The notes under the pieces: model-generated | Databases searched by the model: none | Told to the model about the DNA's origin: nothing | The model's input: the letters and a program-made list of their open reading frames with translations, nothing else | Shown here: positions 51,208-60,210 of the stretch, piece by piece | Position numbering within the stretch: the stretch's first letter is position 1 | Layout of the letters: every line of letters starts with the position of its first letter | Made by a program: the position numbers and the translations under genes | IMG/VR virus record: IMGVR_UViG_3300038525_000015 | Span: 1-64,000 of that record | DNA length: 64,000 nucleotides | Strand: one strand, 5' to 3' | Source: a virus | Lineage: Duplodnaviria > Caudoviricetes

Positions 51208-54200
51208 TCACTCCCTCGCGCGAGCCTCCTCGATCCGCTTCCCTGCCCTCTCGGTCAGCCGGCTCTTGATGGCCTGCAACCGATCCAGCTCCCGCCGCTT
51301 GCGCTCGCCGTCCCAGTCGCTGCGGCGCACCATATCCATGCGGGCATTGATGCCGCTGAGTTGCTTCTGCACCTCAGCCAGCGGTTTACGCATTGCCAGC
51401 ACCTGCCGCTTCTCCTGAACCAACTCCCTCGCTTCATCCTTACGCCCCAGCTCCTGGAGACGCTTCGCGTCGGCATACACCCGCCCGGATTCTTTCAGGC
51501 CTTCATAGAACAGCGTGCTGTAGCGGTCATACGGCGCCGGCGCGCCCAGGTCGCGGTAGAACCGCCGGATCGGCTGGTACTCGTGCCAATGCTTCGCCGG
51601 CTCGCTCTCGCCGCCCGCTGCGCGCCAGACCGTATCAGTGATGCCGGCGCCCCAAGCGCCAACCTGACCGAGGTAGCCCCTGATCAGGTGATCGGCCTGC
51701 AGCGACGAGAGTGCGAATTCTTCGCCCAGCACTGCGGTGGCCGAGGAAATCGCTTTCGCCGGCGCAGTGCTGCTCGCTCGATCGCGCAGGGTTGGGCTCA
51801 CTTTCTCCATCCCGGCGCTCTCGATAGGCCGGCCGGTGAAAGCATCCCTGTTCGAGTACACATCCAGCGCTGGCTGGAACATCTGCGGCACCGGACTGAA
51901 GCTGAACGTTTGGGTGAGCATCGCCCACAGCCGCTCGCGAAACAGCTTGCCGCTGGCCTTGTCGTCGACTGCCTGTTCAGCCAGACGCTCCACCAGCGTG
52001 GAAATGGCACCCACCTCGAACGGCTTGGGCAGGAAGAAGGCGTTATCCCCGACGCGGAAGAACCAGAAGCTGTCCTTCTGCCAGTCCTCGAGCTTGCGGT
52101 ACTCCTCGTCGTCATGGTTCGCCAGGAAAAGCGCCAAGCTGGCCAGCGCCAGCGCACCGGTCACCGCGGCGAACCGGGCGGCCGCCACCTTGTCGCTGTT
52201 GGTGCCCTTGCCGAAGGCAACCTTGACCGCCGGCTTGAAGCCCGAGCGATACAGTTTGTCGAGGCCCTGCAGGCGAGCATTTAGAAATGGCACAACGCGA
52301 ATCAGGAAGCGCACCGCCGGCCAGGCGCCTTCCTGGCTGAAGTCCATCAGATCGCGCGCCTCGTAGGCGGCGCGCAGCGCACCCTTGTCCTTGTTCTGCA
52401 GGAAAGCCGCCGCCCGATTGGCGTTTTCGGCGGTGTTAGCCGCCTCGTTGTAGGCGTCCCAGCCGGCCACCAGCAGCTTCGGCACCAGGGCGGGAGCGTC
52501 CAGCAGCTTCGCGCCGCGCAGGGAGCGCTTGAGCCCGGCCTTCACCTCCTCGGGATCCGCACCGTAGATATGCCCGAAGCTGAATGCACCACCACTGGCC
52601 AGCATCTGCGCCCTGGTCTTCTGATCGCGGAAGGACTTCAGGCCCTGAAACATGTTCGCTGGCACGTTCTTGCTCACCGGCGTGGTGGCGGCGGCCTGCA
52701 TCGAGTCGCGCAGGAAGTTGGCGATGATGAACTGCGGCGTGATGGTGGTCATGTTGGTGAACACCCGCTTGAACTTGGCCATGGTGCGCACGGCGAAGTT
52801 GTTGAGCCCCGGGTCGGCCAGCGAGCTCAACGCCTCGAACACCAGGGCATCGTCCACCTCGTACCAGACCTTATCGCCCTTCTCCAGAACGAAGGTGCTG
52901 GTCTTGGGATCGCGTGCTGCCTCTGGGACCTTCCGCGCAATCTGCAGGCGCTCAGCGTTGGCGATGGTTTGCGCCGCGGCCTGGTTCTTCAGGCTGGCCG
53001 TCAGCAGGTGGTGGAAGTTCATCAGGGTGTTTTCCAGCAGGTCATTCAGATTCTGCTTCCCGCCCTTGAGCTTCTTGTACGCCTCCTGCCGACTCAGCCC
53101 CTTGGACGAAACCGGGCCCTTCGCCTTGGCCTCTTCATCCATGACCCGATAGAACGGGACGTAGAACTCGTCCCGCCACATGGCACGGTTCTCGGAGCTG
53201 ATAATGCCGGTCTGCTCAGCAATGGCCAGCACGTCGTCGCGGTACTGCTGGAACTCCTTGAAGACCTCATCGTAAAGCGATGCACGGGTGCGGCCGTCTT
53301 CAGTGACACCCCTGTTGATCCCTTTCAGCGCCTCGATGTCCTGGGCGGTGAACAGGTTTTCCCTGCCCTCTGCCGCGAGCTTGGCCGCCCGATTGCCGGC
53401 CACCCAGCCGAAGAAGCGCTCGATTTCCTTCGCATCCCCAAGCCGGCCCAGCACTTCACCCAGACCCATACTGCCGTCTTCGCGCATGCCGATCACTTTC
53501 TGCTGCGGATCGAGGACGATGCGGCCGTTGTGCATCATGGCGTTGAGCGCACCGGCGGCCGCCGGCGCCATGCGGGCCAGTACCCAGGCGCTGCTGGTGA
53601 TCGAAGTGTCGAGGAAGTCGAGGCCGTGAGCCTTCTCGTCGAGTTCCTTCAAGGCGGCGTAGCGATCGACCAGGCCCTGGCGGATCTTGGTCATAGCGCG
53701 GTCGGCGCGCTCGCGGAACCAGAGCGTTGCGCGCTGGCGAGCAGTCGGGGGAGCGATCTTGCCCAGCGCATCGCGCTCGGCCTGGCTGAGATCGGCGAAA
53801 GCTTCGGAAACGTGGGGGCGCGTCGACCGCAGCGAGTAGCGGGTGTCTTCGGAGGGGTCTACAGGTGCTTCAGTTCCGGATCGATCGCCAGTTGCTGCTT
53901 GGCCCACTCGGAAGAGGCCTTCATCTCGCGCCGCAGAGATTCGATCTCGGATTTCGTCAGGCGATAGTTGCCCTTTGTCGAACGTGAGGAGGGTTCGAGC
54001 TTCGGACTGGGTGAGCCCTTCGAAGCCATAACCGAAGGTTTCACGCCACCAGGGTTCGATATCGCTGTACTTGCCACGGACTTGCGCCAAGGTGTCGGGA
54101 TCAATCGCAAGTTTCCGTGAGTAGTTCTTGCCGGTCAAGGCAAGCGCTGCCAGCACCTGGCCGCCGTTGTCCTCGATGTGCGTCTTCAACTGCGCCAGAG

Positions 54201-57200
54201 TTCCACCCTGGGTCAGGGTGTCGTCGAGGAGCAGGTACTCAGCGGCGACCACGCCACCATCGAAGGTCGGCTGATTGGCAATGCGCTCCAGAGCATTTGA
54301 CTGGGTCCGACCAACCTTCTGCGCCTGCATCACATTGGTGTCGGTCTCCAAGCCCAGGCGCTGCGCCAGCACCTCGGCAGCCATCAGCGGAATCCGATTG
54401 TCCCCCGCACCCTCGCGCGCCAGCACCGGCACGATGCGCGGCAAGCTGCCCTCCGGAATCAGCGCTCGCACCCGCTCGATGAACTCCGGCGTTACAGCAT
54501 CGCGGGCGACGCGCAGCGCGGCCGCGTCGTCGCCGGCCTTGGCTGCGGCGTAGTCGGGGTGGTTGTTCAGGAAGCTCAGGGGGTGCGCCAGCACCGTATC
54601 GGGGAAATCCGCCGCCCAGCCTCGACGGGAGTAGAGCTGGTCGGAACCAGACAGGTTCGCGCGCTGCGCACGCAGCCAGTCCCGCGACTGCTCGATCAGG
54701 GCCAGCACGTCGGTGTAGGTCCAGTTCACCTGGGGGAACAGCTTGCGCAGCAACTCGCGGATCTTCGACGCCACACGCTGAAGCACGGTCGGTCGGTCGC
54801 CCGACTCGGCCAAGTGGGCAATGATCTCCTCGGCAATCAGCAGGCGCTGCTCCGCTGCGCTCTTGCCTTGGAGCACGGCGGCGTAGTGCTCGCGGATCTG
54901 CGCCACCCGCTGCCGGCCGGTGGTGCGGGCCATCTCGCTGGAATAGATGCGTTCCAGCGTGCCGTCGAGCTGATCACCCAGCAGGCCGCGAATGCCCTGG
55001 TGGCCAACCATCTCGTGCACCGCGGTGCGGATGGCTTCTTCCAGATCCTGCTGGTTGTCGGCGACCAGGTACTGCGCATCCGGCCGAAACACACCGCGGA
55101 CATCATGGGACCGCACACCATCACGCTCAGCGCGGATTCGCACCGACAGAGGCAAGTCGCCAAAGGCCTGCACCACTTGGATGCTTGCTAGCTCAGGATG
55201 CTTATCGATCTCCGTTTGGATTTCCACCGCCGACACCTGGCCACGGCCGTCTAGGCGGTACATTTGGACGCCACTATCCGTCTCGCGCGTTTCGATGATG
55301 CCGAAGAGCTCATCAAACGCAGCACGCACTGAAGGGAGCTCTGCAGCTGTTAGGTAGGGGTAACGATCCGGGTCGCTGTATGCCGTCTCCGATACGATAT
55401 TCGCCAGGTAATCGCTGCTAATACCAGCGTCCTGCAGCTTGGCTATGACATGGCTTTCGAAGGCGCGAGCCGACATTTCCAGCGCCGTTGACCAGTAATC
55501 CTTGCTGCGTGTTGCGTCTAATTGCTCGGAACGCTTCTGCAAGTCTGTCGCCCTGAGCGCACTCATCAGACGACTGAAGGCTTCGATGAGCTCGGGGCGT
55601 ACACCCTCACCGCGCTTGTAAGGCCGCTCAGTGAGATAAGCATCCGGCTGACTTCTGGCCCGACTGAGGTAGTTGTCGAAGGCATGCCACCACTCATGCG
55701 CCAGCGAGCCAGCACCGTTCCCCTTGGTCAGGTTAATGACAGTCTCGCCCGACTCGTAATGCGCTTTTGCCGGGTCAGGCCCACCTCTACCACGCGCACC
55801 GAACGCTAAAGCGAGCTCTCCATTGAGCGACAGAGCCTTGGCCGGGATGTTCAAGATGCCGGCCAAATCACTCAGCGCGTCGAATGCTTCGTTGAGCTCT
55901 TGCTGCCGACGGTTGTTTTCAACGTAGTTGCCAAACTGCACACCACGAAAACCGAAGGTCTCGCTGAACAGCTCGGGGGTAACATCCTGGCCATTCCGGT
56001 AGTCGACCCCAACCCGAGGCGCGTTGCCTTCACCTCGGTGCGCGGGCACCTCTTTTAGCGCGTCGTACTGCCTTTCTAGCGAACTCTGATTTTCGCCCAG
56101 ATACTTGCGTGCCTCTGCCAAGCTGTCGAACGATCGAAGCCGCGCAACGCGCTTGCCATTTTTTTTCCCAATGAAATAGCCGCGCTCGCCACGCTGAGAG
56201 AACACATCGAAGCGGATGGCGTTGTCGGCTTTTTTCTTCACAGACTCGAGCTTGGCATGTACCTCCGCAAAGGCGTCCAAGGCTTCCTGCTTGGTGTTAC
56301 CGGAGGCCAATTCTTGCGGCCAATTACTCAGCGCCGTAGCTTTTGCATCCTTGCTGGCAATCCATTTATTGACGTTTTTCTCGCCTCGATACATCGAGAA
56401 ATAGCGCTCGGCGAACGTAATGCCCTTGAGCGAATGCGCATGTCCAAAGCGCTGATACAACTCCACCCGGCCAGCCAGACCGCGCAACGCGGGGTGGTCG
56501 TCGTAGAGGCTTGAGCGAACCTCTTCGGTGAGTTCGCCGTGATCCAAAATCCGGCGCGTCGCATTGCGCAAAAGATCAACCTGGTCAGCCCACCGACTCA
56601 GCTTGTATGGATTGCTGGGTTTGGTGGGCACCTCATCTCGGGCAGCATGTGCAAAAGCAACCGCCCAACGGTCACCACCCTGATCCAGAAGTGCCTGATA
56701 GTCCGGTTCAGGCCAAGACTTAGACAGCGGTACCGCTTTCACGTCCGCTTGCATCGCCACGTCGAGCTGCTGCGTATAGGACGAAAACTTGCGCGCGCCC
56801 TCGATTCGCTCTCCGAAGTCGTCGATCTTCTTTGTTGGCTTGGGTGTAGCGGCTGGTTTTTCGGCGACTACCTGCTTGGCCGGCAGAGTGTGTTCCACTT
56901 GGTCGCGCTTGGCGGGAGCGTTGCGCTCCGCGCCCGATGCCAGTTTTTGCTCAGCTGAAGAGCCGGAGGAGGTGTCGCTTACGCGGTCGGTTGCTGCAGG
57001 GCCTGCTTCGCTTGCCGACGAGCCAGGCGCTCCTGCGTCGCTTGCTCGATGCGCGCCTGCAGCTCGTTCTGGCGCCTTTCCAGCTCCACTGGATCGCTGG
57101 TCCCGAAGTGCTCGATCGCTCGTTGGAGCCTGGCTTCCGCTGACATGCTGGGTACCTTTTTTGCTCTGATCCATCGCCCTATCGGCGGCGTTCATGACAT

Positions 57201-60200
57201 CCGCAGAAGTGAGGCCTGCTTCGATCGGGGAAACCCCCAGATGCAGCCCCACGCCACGTTTGGACTCGTCGTCAGGATGCTTCGGGTGGACGATCTTGTC
57301 CAGCCCTTCCCGGCGCGTGTAGGCCTTGGCGGCCGCCTGGCCACGCTCCAGGGCCGCCTCGACTGCCGCTCGCTCGCCGCCAATCACCAGCACGCCGAAC
57401 TCGTCGCCGCCGGTGCGGAAGCCTTCGACATGGCCGACCGCGCCCAGCTCCTTGCGCACGATGTCCGCCAGCGCCCGGTAGTGCTTGTTGGCGTCCCGAG
57501 CCACGTTGTTGAAATGCGCGTTCAGTCCACCCAGGTTAGCGATGTCGGCGCTCACCCAGTACGCCTCGCCGTCGGTGGCGGCCACGTACTCGATGGCTCG
57601 GCCAATGGCGCGCTCAGTGTCAGTGCTGCCGTCTTCCGCTTCGCGCCGGCCCTCGAACAGTCCGGTGGTGGCATCGATGGGTGCGGAGAAGCGCGACTTG
57701 CTGGCCAGGCGCTCGGCCACGTCCGGGGCCACGCCGTCGGCGATGTACTCGTCGATAACGGCCTGGCGGTAGGAGTCCGCATAGGGCGTATAGCCAGCAG
57801 CCGGCCCCTGCTCGGCGCGCCCTGCCTGGGCGAGATCCTGGGCCGGCTTGGTCAGGTCTCCCTTGAGCCAGCGCTTGAACTGCTCGACCGGCATGGCCGT
57901 GACCTCGCCCACCTTCCAGTCCGGATCGAAGTTGGAACGGTAGGCCTCCACCGCCGCGGCCTGGTCGGGATAGCCCAGCATCACCTTGTGCTCATCGAAG
58001 CTGCCATCCTGCTGGTGGAGCTGGTCAACGATGAACACCTGGTCGCTGTCTTCCTGCGGCCCTAGGTACACGTCGACCTGCTCTTGGTCGGCGCCAACGG
58101 TGCGCTTGATGTAGCCGTAGTGATCGCTCATGGTGTGACGCCACTCGGTACCATCCGGGCGCTTGCCGCTGCGCTCGGAGCCGCGCGGATTCTCAACAGC
58201 GATATCCAGGCCGGCGACGCGCACATGCCCCTTGCGGTAGTTGCCGGTCTCAATCTGCGCCGGCGTGGGCGCCGGCAGGTCGTTGTTCGGGGAGGTGGCC
58301 GCCTGATCTGCCTGTTGGTCGATCGGACGTGCCGGACGCAACGGCTGCGGTTCCTGCTGCTTGGGCACTGCAACGGCCCAGCCATCACCGTGGCGCACGA
58401 TCTGCGGCTGCTCGCCAGCCTTCGCCGCCTCGCGATACAGGAGGCTCGCGCGCGCATCGCCGCGCCCCTGGAACGGCTTGCCGTTCTTGCGCAGCCGAAT
58501 TTCCAGATCCGGCGCGCCGCTGGCGTCAGCAGTTGGAGCGTGCTGGTCCATCCCGCGCCCGCCCGGCAGCGGCCGTTCGGGATTCGGAGCCACGAACGGC
58601 CCGGTCGGCCCCCGCTGAGCATTGCCCTGGCTATCCACCACGATGCTATCCGGGGCGGGCAGTGCCTGGCGCTCCGGTGCGGCGTCGACCGTGGCAGGCT
58701 CCGCGGCTGCGCGCCCAGGTGCCGCCGGCCGACTGCCATACTGGAACTCGCCAGCCAACGGCGCCGGTTCGCCTCGCGGGGTCGGCTGATCCATACCCGG
58801 CCCACCGGGCATGCGCTCCGGATCGTTCTGCGGATTGACCCACTGGCGTGCCTGCAGATCCGGCCGCTGCTCGCCGTCCACGTTGCGCACCGGCCCGGTG
58901 TCTTGCACGTTGCCTTGGCTGTCGGCATAGAAGACCTTCTCGGGCGCCGGCAGTGCCTGGTGCTCAGGTGCCGGCAAAGCGCCGGGCTCGGGGGTGTTCT
59001 CGAAGGTGGCTTCGGGGGTCGCGAGATCCTGGGCTGCAGCGCTAGCAGGCCTGACGCGCGGCGTGGCCACCGCACCCAGCCCCCCACCCATAACAGCGCC
59101 AGTGGCGAGGCCGCCAAGCCCTGCGTTCAGCACGCCAGCGCCAAGCTTTCGATTCGGGTCGGCGTCCTGCATGGCGTAGTTCTCTGCCACCTGCTGCCCA
59201 ATCGACTGCGGCAGCTCTTCCAGCAGGCCTTCGCCAACCGCGCCCTTGGCGATACGCCCGCCGATACCCGCTGTCACCCTGCCAGTCAGCAGGTTGGCCA
59301 GCGCACGGTCGCCCATGCCGCCGAAAACACCCGTGGCCGCGCCAGCTATGAGCAGGCCTTGGGTGGCAGAGTCCTCAGCCAGTTGCGCCCGCGCTTCCTC
59401 CGGCTTAAGCCCCTCTTCCAGCAGCGTCTGAAACGCCTCGGACTGCTGCAGTTGCTCCAGCGGCATGGCGGCGATCTGGTCGCGCACCTGGCGCGCCGTG
59501 TCCGCTCCGCCCAGCAAGCCCTCGGAAACGCCGCCGGCCACGGTCGCCATGCGTGCGGCGGCCTTCGCCGCCACTGCTTTATCCCCCGTCTTGGCCAGCG
59601 CGCGAGCATAGGCGCCCTTGGCCAGCCGGCCCGCCGCGCCCATGGTGATGGCCATCTCCGGCAGCGACTGGATGATGCCGCTGGCGTAGGCGCGCGGATC
59701 AGTCCAGGCCGAGCCGAGCGAACCGGTTTCCTCATCCCACCACAACTTCTGCTGCGCGCCACGCATCTCGGGGGTCAGGTTCTGCTGGTACTTCTGCTCG
59801 TTTTCCCGCAGCAGCGTTTCGGAGTCCTTGCCCGACAGGAAGCGGTCGGCGGCATCACCCGCCGCCAGCAACCCTTCGCCCACCACCGGGATGCGCCCCA
59901 CCAGCTCGCGCACGTTCTGCGCCGCGCGGTTGACGCCTGCTGCCAGGAGGTTGCCTGTGTCGGTGAGCAGATTGCCGCTTTCCGGGGATTCCGCATCAGC
60001 CCCAAGGGTCGACCGACCAAGCGTGCTCTGCGTGTCCTGGTCGAACAGCTCGCGGGCACGCGGCTCCATGCCTGCTGGAACCCGAGGCATAACCACTTCT
60101 TGGAAGTAGAGTTCGCGAGCACGCTCTTGGCGTTCGGGCGCCAGCGCGCGGAATTGCTCGCTGGCAGCCACCTCCGCCCAGCGGCGGGGTTGGCGGGTTT

Positions 60201-60210
60201 CGTTCTGCAT
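51208..60210 (-). CDS. 3000-aa large polyvalent virion (ejection-type) protein
   Basis: Domains N to C: Gly-rich hydrophobic region; ALPAP repeats; pyrophosphatase-like (about 58275-57865); GGDEF (about 57690-57150); LPD5-like; LPD1-like with HEWWH; second zincin HEMVGH; PRTase (LLDDTLTQGGT); LPD38-like C-terminus. Confidence 0.88.
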   Translation of the reverse strand: MQNETRQPRRWAEVAASEQFRALAPERQERARELYFQEVVMPRVPAGMEPRARELFDQDTQSTLGRSTLGADAESPESGNLLTDTGNLLAAGVNRAAQNVRELVGRIPVVGEGLLAAGDAADRFLSGKDSETLLRENEQKYQQNLTPEMRGAQQKLWWDEETGSLGSAWTDPRAYASGIIQSLPEMAITMGAAGRLAKGAYARALAKTGDKAVAAKAAARMATVAGGVSEGLLGGADTARQVRDQIAAMPLEQLQQSEAFQTLLEEGLKPEEARAQLAEDSATQGLLIAGAATGVFGGMGDRALANLLTGRVTAGIGGRIAKGAVGEGLLEELPQSIGQQVAENYAMQDADPNRKLGAGVLNAGLGGLATGAVMGGGLGAVATPRVRPASAAAQDLATPEATFENTPEPGALPAPEHQALPAPEKVFYADSQGNVQDTGPVRNVDGEQRPDLQARQWVNPQNDPERMPGGPGMDQPTPRGEPAPLAGEFQYGSRPAAPGRAAAEPATVDAAPERQALPAPDSIVVDSQGNAQRGPTGPFVAPNPERPLPGGRGMDQHAPTADASGAPDLEIRLRKNGKPFQGRGDARASLLYREAAKAGEQPQIVRHGDGWAVAVPKQQEPQPLRPARPIDQQADQAATSPNNDLPAPTPAQIETGNYRKGHVRVAGLDIAVENPRGSERSGKRPDGTEWRHTMSDHYGYIKRTVGADQEQVDVYLGPQEDSDQVFIVDQLHQQDGSFDEHKVMLGYPDQAAAVEAYRSNFDPDWKVGEVTAMPVEQFKRWLKGDLTKPAQDLAQAGRAEQGPAAGYTPYADSYRQAVIDEYIADGVAPDVAERLASKSRFSAPIDATTGLFEGRREAEDGSTDTERAIGRAIEYVAATDGEAYWVSADIANLGGLNAHFNNVARDANKHYRALADIVRKELGAVGHVEGFRTGGDEFGVLVIGGERAAVEAALERGQAAAKAYTRREGLDKIVHPKHPDDESKRGVGLHLGVSPIEAGLTSADVMNAADRAMDQSKKGTQHVSGSQAPTSDRALRDQRSSGAGKAPERAAGAHRASDAGAPGSSASEAGPAATDRVSDTSSGSSAEQKLASGAERNAPAKRDQVEHTLPAKQVVAEKPAATPKPTKKIDDFGERIEGARKFSSYTQQLDVAMQADVKAVPLSKSWPEPDYQALLDQGGDRWAVAFAHAARDEVPTKPSNPYKLSRWADQVDLLRNATRRILDHGELTEEVRSSLYDDHPALRGLAGRVELYQRFGHAHSLKGITFAERYFSMYRGEKNVNKWIASKDAKATALSNWPQELASGNTKQEALDAFAEVHAKLESVKKKADNAIRFDVFSQRGERGYFIGKKNGKRVARLRSFDSLAEARKYLGENQSSLERQYDALKEVPAHRGEGNAPRVGVDYRNGQDVTPELFSETFGFRGVQFGNYVENNRRQQELNEAFDALSDLAGILNIPAKALSLNGELALAFGARGRGGPDPAKAHYESGETVINLTKGNGAGSLAHEWWHAFDNYLSRARSQPDAYLTERPYKRGEGVRPELIEAFSRLMSALRATDLQKRSEQLDATRSKDYWSTALEMSARAFESHVIAKLQDAGISSDYLANIVSETAYSDPDRYPYLTAAELPSVRAAFDELFGIIETRETDSGVQMYRLDGRGQVSAVEIQTEIDKHPELASIQVVQAFGDLPLSVRIRAERDGVRSHDVRGVFRPDAQYLVADNQQDLEEAIRTAVHEMVGHQGIRGLLGDQLDGTLERIYSSEMARTTGRQRVAQIREHYAAVLQGKSAAEQRLLIAEEIIAHLAESGDRPTVLQRVASKIRELLRKLFPQVNWTYTDVLALIEQSRDWLRAQRANLSGSDQLYSRRGWAADFPDTVLAHPLSFLNNHPDYAAAKAGDDAAALRVARDAVTPEFIERVRALIPEGSLPRIVPVLAREGAGDNRIPLMAAEVLAQRLGLETDTNVMQAQKVGRTQSNALERIANQPTFDGGVVAAEYLLLDDTLTQGGTLAQLKTHIEDNGGQVLAALALTGKNYSRKLAIDPDTLAQVRGKYSDIEPWWRETFGYGFEGLTQSEARTLLTFDKGQLSPDEIRDRISAARDEGLFRVGQAATGDRSGTEAPVDPSEDTRYSLRSTRPHVSEAFADLSQAERDALGKIAPPTARQRATLWFRERADRAMTKIRQGLVDRYAALKELDEKAHGLDFLDTSITSSAWVLARMAPAAAGALNAMMHNGRIVLDPQQKVIGMREDGSMGLGEVLGRLGDAKEIERFFGWVAGNRAAKLAAEGRENLFTAQDIEALKGINRGVTEDGRTRASLYDEVFKEFQQYRDDVLAIAEQTGIISSENRAMWRDEFYVPFYRVMDEEAKAKGPVSSKGLSRQEAYKKLKGGKQNLNDLLENTLMNFHHLLTASLKNQAAAQTIANAERLQIARKVPEAARDPKTSTFVLEKGDKVWYEVDDALVFEALSSLADPGLNNFAVRTMAKFKRVFTNMTTITPQFIIANFLRDSMQAAATTPVSKNVPANMFQGLKSFRDQKTRAQMLASGGAFSFGHIYGADPEEVKAGLKRSLRGAKLLDAPALVPKLLVAGWDAYNEAANTAENANRAAAFLQNKDKGALRAAYEARDLMDFSQEGAWPAVRFLIRVVPFLNARLQGLDKLYRSGFKPAVKVAFGKGTNSDKVAAARFAAVTGALALASLALFLANHDDEEYRKLEDWQKDSFWFFRVGDNAFFLPKPFEVGAISTLVERLAEQAVDDKASGKLFRERLWAMLTQTFSFSPVPQMFQPALDVYSNRDAFTGRPIESAGMEKVSPTLRDRASSTAPAKAISSATAVLGEEFALSSLQADHLIRGYLGQVGAWGAGITDTVWRAAGGESEPAKHWHEYQPIRRFYRDLGAPAPYDRYSTLFYEGLKESGRVYADAKRLQELGRKDEARELVQEKRQVLAMRKPLAEVQKQLSGINARMDMVRRSDWDGERKRRELDRLQAIKSRLTERAGKRIEEARARE
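53859..54029 (-). CDS. Nested +1-frame ORF over the end of the PRTase domain (56 aa)
   Basis: MASKG...NYRLTKSEIESLRREMKASSEWAKQQLAIDPELKHL; host-like codons in the +1 frame; start and RBS uncertain. Confidence 0.5.
   Translation of the reverse strand: MASKGSPSPKLEPSSRSTKGNYRLTKSEIESLRREMKASSEWAKQQLAIDPELKHL
56979..57146 (-). CDS. Nested +1-frame ORF directly after the GGDEF domain (55 aa, not in the ORF track)
   Basis: AAAGGT SD 7 nt before ATG; MSAEARLQRAIEHFGTSDPVELERRQNELQARIEQATQERLARRQAKQALQQPTA. Confidence 0.6.
   Translation of the reverse strand: MSAEARLQRAIEHFGTSDPVELERRQNELQARIEQATQERLARRQAKQALQQPTA

Follow-up and report, generated by a model that had tools for sequence, protein, structure and literature searches.

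Genes lying wholly inside a larger gene are known from phage lambda, where the small spanin gene Rz1 has its own start and is contained within Rz in the +1 frame of the same strand, and where the products of the two genes cooperate. A different kind of pairing is represented by Tas1-Tis1, in which a nucleotide-synthesising toxin of the type VI secretion system, a (p)ppApp synthetase, is accompanied by an immunity protein. In the present work we describe a short open reading frame (ORF) nested within the gene of a giant polyvalent protein of a virus of the Caudoviricetes (IMG/VR record IMGVR_UViG_3300038525_000015; the whole stretch of DNA analyzed, positions 1 to 64,000 of this record, is referred to below as the window). 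The ORF begins where a divergent GGDEF-like domain of this protein ends and, judging from its comparison with related elements, is very probably a real, selected coding gene.

As in the Rz/Rz1 pair, the window carries a nested small gene with its own start, placed in the +1 frame of the same strand. However, the two cases are unrelated in sequence and function: here a polyvalent virion or effector gene of 9 kb serves as the host, the part overlapped by the nested gene is a disordered linker instead of a folded region, and it is the nested frame, not that of the host, that holds the coding signature.

GGDEF and InPase domains have been listed among the components of phage-type polyvalent proteins (Iyer et al. 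2017, PMC5512222). The host gene shares the defining architecture of this class, i.e. a giant polypeptide combining numerous unrelated effector and LPD domains (here InPase, GGDEF-like, LPD5, LPD1 and LPD38). The words “overlapping” and “frameshift” each have 0 occurrences in the text of that paper, and the nested gene represents an extra layer. No paper describing this nested-gene arrangement was found in a literature search. A second relevant group comprises the effectors of contractile injection systems, which combine an N-terminal DUF4157 domain with a C-terminal toxin and some of which have immunity genes (PMC8213781).

Position, conservation and reading frame of the nested ORF

The nested ORF is in the +1 frame relative to the 3000-aa ORF at 51208-60210. 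It starts over the final conserved residues of the GGDEF-like domain, and its remainder overlies a main-frame linker; the nested frame is also open for 15 codons upstream of the ATG (to a TGA at 57194-57192). The relevant features of this region are as follows.

56979-57146, minus strand: nested +1-frame gene of 55 codons, with ATG at 57146-57144 and TAA at 56981-56979
57154-57159, minus strand: Shine-Dalgarno (SD)-like sequence AAAGGT, encoded by the main-frame K-G of SKKG at the domain end and separated from the ATG by a 7-nt spacer (ACCCAGC)
57157-57162, minus strand: run of six A residues (A6), proposed earlier as a +1 slip site; not kept in relatives and considered non-functional
56971-57143, minus strand: main-frame linker over the nested gene, rich in S, G, A, R and P and poorly conserved; its main-frame GC content at third codon positions (GC3), 0.45, is the minimum of the gene
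57142-57642, minus strand: divergent GGDEF-like domain in the main frame, containing DIANLGGLN (metal-site motif) and an intact GGDEF; the nested start lies across its final residues
51208-60210, minus strand: host gene for the 3000-aa phage polyvalent protein of the virus record, with InPase, GGDEF-like, LPD5, LPD1 and LPD38 domains (Pfam)

These coordinates confirm what a preliminary description of the window, made by a model from the letters alone, had reported: a nested gene for a 55-aa protein that starts where the GGDEF domain ends, with an AAAGGT written by the final conserved helix of that domain at a distance of 7 nt from the ATG.

Relatives were collected by a protein search with residues 800-1180 of the giant protein, which yielded three close homologues and many distant ones, and their DNA was compared; scans with an alignment of the GGDEF-like domain added 13 IMG/VR and 26 GTDB loci (loci are designated L002, L003, etc.). 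No match was obtained in annotated phage and plasmid collections, either at the DNA level or with tblastn. A +1-frame ATG ORF was present at the same spot in 24 distinct overlapped loci, in addition to near-duplicates and one doubtful case (L036; MGIERESRLGL..., 92 codons). The overlapped loci span 31-86% domain identity and 42-69% GC. In the close group (L002-L005) the ATG, the TAA and a length of exactly 55 codons are kept without indels, with base identity over the first 138 nt of the stretch ranging from 85% down to 64%. All of the distant relatives (31-55% domain identity, 42-69% GC) contain the ORF at this spot (39-79 codons); six of them, L007, L008, L009, L010 (49% GC), L011 and L012 (domain identity 31-55%), have a version of 48-67 codons with a similar N-terminus. 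Further loci with the same +1 ORF are L014-L023, L026-L029, L031 and L034, including one Nocardia genome (L028) and two Variovorax genomes (L029 and L031). The alternative-frame ORF is thus intact at the homologous position in strongly diverged relatives.

An N-terminal motif resembling MS.E.RLKRLGL is common to the family. Each of 12 domain-bearing sequences contained a single copy of the pattern M[SGT].[EQD].R[LA].R, with no other occurrence among 343,716 six-frame residues; the pattern was derived from the same sequences and therefore demonstrates specificity only.

Comparison of the three frames indicated which of them is conserved. In 23 representative loci the stretch of the first 16 nested codons had a mean pairwise identity of 0.49 when read in the nested frame, compared to 0.21 for the main and 0.25 for the +2 frame, and the most conserved base was nested position 2, which is position 3 of the main frame. 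Hidden Markov models (HMMs) were built for the window group from each frame of the same bases and run against six-frame translations of L007-L010. The nested-frame model found L008 (E 5e-10) and L007 (E 3e-8), the main- and +2-frame models did not find the homologous place in L007-L010, and the reverse search matched the window at E 9e-12. HMMs made from the single sequences of L009 or L010 gave no significant match to other loci. In every pair within the window group, nested-frame identity exceeded main-frame identity.

The codons themselves show the same preference. Nested Ser2 is encoded by TCN in 18 cases and by AGY in 6, and CGN as well as AGR codons occur for both nested Arg6 and nested Arg9. 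In all 23 loci the AT of the nested ATG belongs to a host codon CAT, AAT, GAT or TAT, with no case of NAC; across these genes NAT accounts for only 15-55% of NAY codons, and the host residue varies between His, Asn, Asp and Tyr. When GC content is sorted by codon position, the nested stretch has the phase of the nested frame in each of the 11 loci tested: in the window, GC1/GC2/GC3 of the nested frame are 0.76/0.45/0.78, compared to 0.69/0.47/0.77 for the gene as a whole. Main-frame GC3 over the nested stretch was 0.33-0.53, which falls among the lowest 0-1.6% of each gene (8% in L010).

An OLGenie-like count gave a pooled nested dNN/dNS of 0.70 (confidence interval 0.47-1.01) and a main-frame dNN/dSN of 1.09; within the window group the nested ratio was 0.28-0.67 and the main ratio about 1. 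Taken together with the frame-specific identity, this points to purifying selection specific to the nested frame. As judged by these comparisons, the stretch that is read as a floppy linker of the giant protein would be primarily the coding sequence of another gene.

The start region is conserved beyond the needs of the host frame. The SD-anti-SD energy upstream of the nested ATG in 28 loci had a median of -7.4 kcal/mol, compared to -2.7 for other ATGs (p 2.6e-15), and several loci have near-perfect SD sequences (e.g. AAGGAGG and GGAGGG); the SD is encoded by a conserved K-x-G at the domain end. The nested gene is thus likely to be initiated at this ATG. An SD-led start, as claimed in the preliminary description, holds for the family, and the AAAGGT of the window is weak. 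The independent initiation proposed there is supported by the conserved ATG and SD, the frame-specific conservation, the compositional phase and the free-standing homologues described below.

The small protein, its free-standing homologues and its probable role

The nested product is a 55-aa protein rich in A, Q, E and R. AlphaFold2 (10 sequences) predicted a helix at residues 3-14, a short loop and a second helix at residues 19-50, with a mean predicted local distance difference test score of 85. Its earlier characterization as an E/Q/R-rich coiled coil is accordingly retained as to composition and helicity, and the coiled coil as such is putative. The conserved part of the family comprises approximately the first 22 residues, and the tail is basic (K/R/Q-rich) and of variable length; in the window group the RLGL core of the family is replaced by other residues.

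The small protein had no significant match in Pfam, PHROGs, a PDB profile search, Foldseek against PDB, or the ESM Atlas. A single-sequence search of 1.84 billion representatives returned one true match (P0044) and one spurious repeat protein (P0043), and a word-index search with P0001 returned nothing. A collection of 15 billion proteins contained only two free-standing copies and one accidental call; the overlapped versions (window, Variovorax, Nocardia) were not in the protein collection. The product is thus predicted to be an approximately 6-kDa two-helix protein of a new, unnamed family with the N-terminal motif MS.E.RL.R, which adds an unannotated small-protein family missed by gene callers.

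The two free-standing copies were found in the cyanobacteria Tumidithrix helvetica PCC 7403 (L037) and Nostoc spongiaeforme FACHB-130 (L040). In both genomes the gene with the GGDEF-like domain stops just past the domain, and a gene of 57 or 59 codons with the same N-terminal motif begins approximately 25 nt after this effector gene. NCBI annotates the small genes as hypothetical proteins (WP_425213604.1 and WP_190968926.1, respectively). A family profile made of overlapped peptides only, excluding both the window group and the cyanobacterial pair, matched the two cyanobacterial proteins at E 5e-15 and 4e-16; with the same profile the window ORF was the best match (E 0.0027) out of 1514 pieces from a six-frame translation of the whole window. 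The proteins encoded upstream of the cyanobacterial small genes combine eCIS_core (DUF4157), a domain named for extracellular contractile injection systems (eCIS), with GGDEF. An AAA ATPase is encoded near both effectors, and Tumidithrix also has another eCIS_core gene. The small gene is present in one copy per genome; of 301 cyanobacterial genomes sampled one carried it, and none of the other 300 did.

The Tumidithrix effector (L037, positions 31-2052) has two tandem GGDEF-like domains, the first degenerate (GGNKF) and the second intact, followed by one small gene.

In a tree of the domain, the 36 effector-type rows comprised 25 with an overprinted gene, 2 with a free gene and 9 with none, the label being clustered, and ordinary GGDEF proteins formed a distant outgroup. 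A small gene directly after the effector domain, co-occurring with it, was thus found for 27 of the 36 effector-type domains. Domains with and without the small gene could not be told apart by an intact catalytic motif.

Several individual loci with this domain differ in layout. In Nocardia flavorosea (L030) the domain lies within an open giant frame, and a nested ORF is lacking, apparently through loss. In Streptomyces (L032, L035 and L038) the domain forms the C-terminal end of the protein and is followed by an unrelated gene. A 4422-aa WXG100-like protein (P0010) also carries the domain.

In the phage elements the association appears to be mobile. L003, L004 and L005 share a common cassette of InPase, GGDEF-like domain and nested gene, followed by differing downstream domains, and their proteins are approximately 575-600 aa shorter; in the window group a recombination breakpoint or module boundary lies no more than about 10 nt past the nested stop (about 56960-56975 in the window). 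Since the gene was found only beside the domain and moves with it as one cassette, its function is probably tied to the domain.

Since about 30 related elements conserve the gene, and since free-standing copies lie beside the same domain in two cyanobacteria, the nested gene is very likely real, and its product is a putative partner of the domain. The strict tie to the effector domain, together with the place of the free-standing gene after the effector gene, makes a cognate partner the best functional guess. That the product acts as a partner or inhibitor of the GGDEF-like domain is about as likely as not. As an overall explanation we somewhat favor an overprinted gene with its own ATG that encodes a cognate, probably inhibitory, partner of the domain. 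The earlier suggestion that the product binds and inhibits the GGDEF domain would fit the cyanobacterial layout of an effector with a downstream gene.

The likeness to Tas1-Tis1 is one of analogy: a delivered nucleotide-synthesising enzyme would, in both cases, be checked in the producer by a small cognate protein, but Tas1 has a RelA/SpoT fold whereas the domain described here is GGDEF-like, and the delivery routes differ. Described effector-immunity pairs (PMC8213781, PMC3482391) share two properties with the present case: in Tumidithrix and Nostoc the small gene is placed directly after an effector composed of eCIS_core and a GGDEF-like domain, and it strictly co-occurs with that domain. 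In contrast to such pairs, the phage small gene is overprinted within the effector ORF and not located downstream of it, and the small protein matches no known immunity family.

The proposed mechanism may be outlined as follows: (i) the small protein would be translated within the mRNA of the giant gene from its own ATG; (ii) its ribosome-binding site would be the one written into the last conserved residues (K-x-G) of the domain; (iii) the small protein and the GGDEF-like domain would travel as one cassette; (iv) the small protein would probably be an inhibitor that silences the nucleotide cyclase-like enzyme in the producing cell; and (v) delivery of the giant protein without the small protein would release the enzyme from silencing. 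More tentatively, polyvalent proteins may in this way carry the antidote to their own enzymatic “warhead”, overprinted on a linker, so that the enzyme fires only in the next host. If this is true, the same enzyme-antidote cassette serves cyanobacterial contractile injection systems, and the “disordered linkers” of polyvalent proteins may hide small regulatory genes more generally. The family also offers a handle on what the divergent GGDEF-like effector domain does, and on how producers tolerate the enzymatic effectors of polyvalent proteins and eCIS particles, a question raised in PMC8213781.

A number of observations weigh against this explanation. The first concern the ORF itself. When the giant protein was held fixed and its codons were redrawn from the gene's own usage (synonymous shuffle), the +1 frame of the window was open in 67% of trials. 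An ATG arose at the nested start in 43%, and the probability of both together was 0.29; across loci the probability of an open frame was 0.67-0.98, and only the 49%-GC locus L010 gave a lower value (0.08). Since ATG ORFs that reach 55 codons or more occur 11 times in the alternative frames of the same strand of the host gene, and since the frame is so often open in the shuffle, the window ORF taken alone (64% GC) is not more than chance; unlike it, the conservation across relatives exceeds chance. At -3.9 kcal/mol the SD of the window is weak and ranks at the 28th percentile among the ATGs of the gene. The window peptide is diverged: its match to the profile of the other family members has E 0.0027, and that to the two cyanobacterial proteins by themselves E 0.11. 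The evidence of selection is of moderate strength, with no dN/dS signal for L007 versus L008, and the variable sites of the window group, sorted by codon position, showed no clear third-position excess or periodicity. The remaining observations concern function: nine effector-type domains have an intact catalytic motif and no small gene, so that a partner is not strictly required; immunity genes are absent for many eCIS toxins (PMC8213781); and the pairing as effector and “immunity” protein is drawn from gene position only.

Alternative explanations

The alternative that survives best, possible though rather unlikely, accepts that the nested gene is translated and assigns its product a role other than inhibition: it could activate the cyclase or serve as its cofactor, be an independent effector that binds nucleic acids or targets the host, or help in assembly or packaging of the giant protein. 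All the evidence for a real gene applies equally to such a protein, the K/R/Q-rich tail of variable length would suit it, and the nine intact domains do without the small gene. The exclusive occurrence of the gene beside this domain, its single copy per cyanobacterial genome and its absence from the 300 other genomes speak for a function tied to the domain, as does its mobility with the domain as one cassette; the place after the effector is typical of immunity genes (PMC8213781).

It is considerably less probable that the family is real and the window copy is poorly expressed or not expressed, its frame being open mainly through recent common descent and high GC content. No other SDs of the family are as weak as those of the window and of L003 (-3.9 and -4.0 kcal/mol, respectively), chance would be expected to leave the frame open at this GC content, and the window group has replaced the RLGL core. 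Against this reading, the four distinct sequences of the group have diverged by 15-36% of bases within the first 138 nt and still keep the ATG, the stop and the length without indels, with the nested ratios and frame identities given above. RNA from one compost metatranscriptome contained only contigs of 165-199 nt, 95-97% alike, over 57347-57648, i.e. over the domain and not the nested gene; a 36-nt piece from the same RNA at 57082-57117, loose at both ends, is uninformative on the nested gene.

The preliminary description had also raised the possibility of +1 slippage on the A6 run, by which the helical peptide would be fused to the GGDEF-like domain and the giant protein would end early. 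In the window the +1 frame is indeed open from 57191 through the A-run to the ATG, and AAA AAA G is a plausible shifty site. The A-run is confined to the window and is missing in the closest relatives (L002 reads AAA CGA GGT), a homopolymer of at least 5 bases occurs within 36 nt upstream in only 5 of 29 loci, and a nested-frame stop lies no more than 8 codons before the ATG in 9 loci (3 codons in L010). The conserved features are the ATG and the SD, and the free-standing homologues require no frameshift. Slippage is unsupported because the A-run is not conserved, and it is very improbable as the source of the peptide. As a mechanism of the family, programmed +1 frameshifting was rejected on the grounds of the unconserved slippery site and the upstream nested-frame stops; as a minor event in this one phage it is conceivable.

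That the frame is open merely by chance in GC-rich DNA and encodes nothing, for which the 11 comparable ORFs of the gene and the shuffle probability of 0.29 for the window alone might be invoked, has a negligible probability, being already contradicted by the comparative data (frame-specific conservation, codon-family switches, the invariant NAT, SD enrichment, the GC phase switch and annotated free-standing homologues).

The host gene, its GGDEF-like domain and additional observations

Pfam analysis of the host protein identified InPase, LPD5, LPD1 and LPD38, and the GGDEF match was sub-threshold. The window domain alone scored 21.3 bits against PF00990, for which the Pfam cut-off is 23.8. 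PF00990 was matched by 7 of 9 relatives (best E 1.4e-10), and a domain profile matched solved PDB diguanylate cyclases at E 4e-4. The catalytic and metal motifs RTGGDEFG and SADIANLGGLN are present in the window domain. The GGDEF assignment made earlier needs qualification, and the domain is classed here as a divergent GGDEF-like domain.

Only three places in the 9-kb host gene have a main-frame GC3 below 0.55. In addition to the nested stretch, one is at 53859-54029 (minus strand), where a second +1-frame ATG ORF of 56 codons covers the end of a PRTase-like region; these 56 codons are identical in L002 and L004, so that conservation is powerless there. The third is at 56551-56760 (minus strand), with a main-frame GC3 of 0.52 and a lower overall GC content, and no clear phase switch to another frame was seen in it.

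In L010 a second +1-frame piece, located downstream of the nested gene (starting at gene nt 2006), was matched by the HMM of the L007/L008 nested peptides at E 9e-4, which may reflect nothing more than composition. Just upstream of the giant gene in L003 (459-800) and L004 (458-799), a gene of the Imm_superinfect family (PF14373) is located on the opposite strand.

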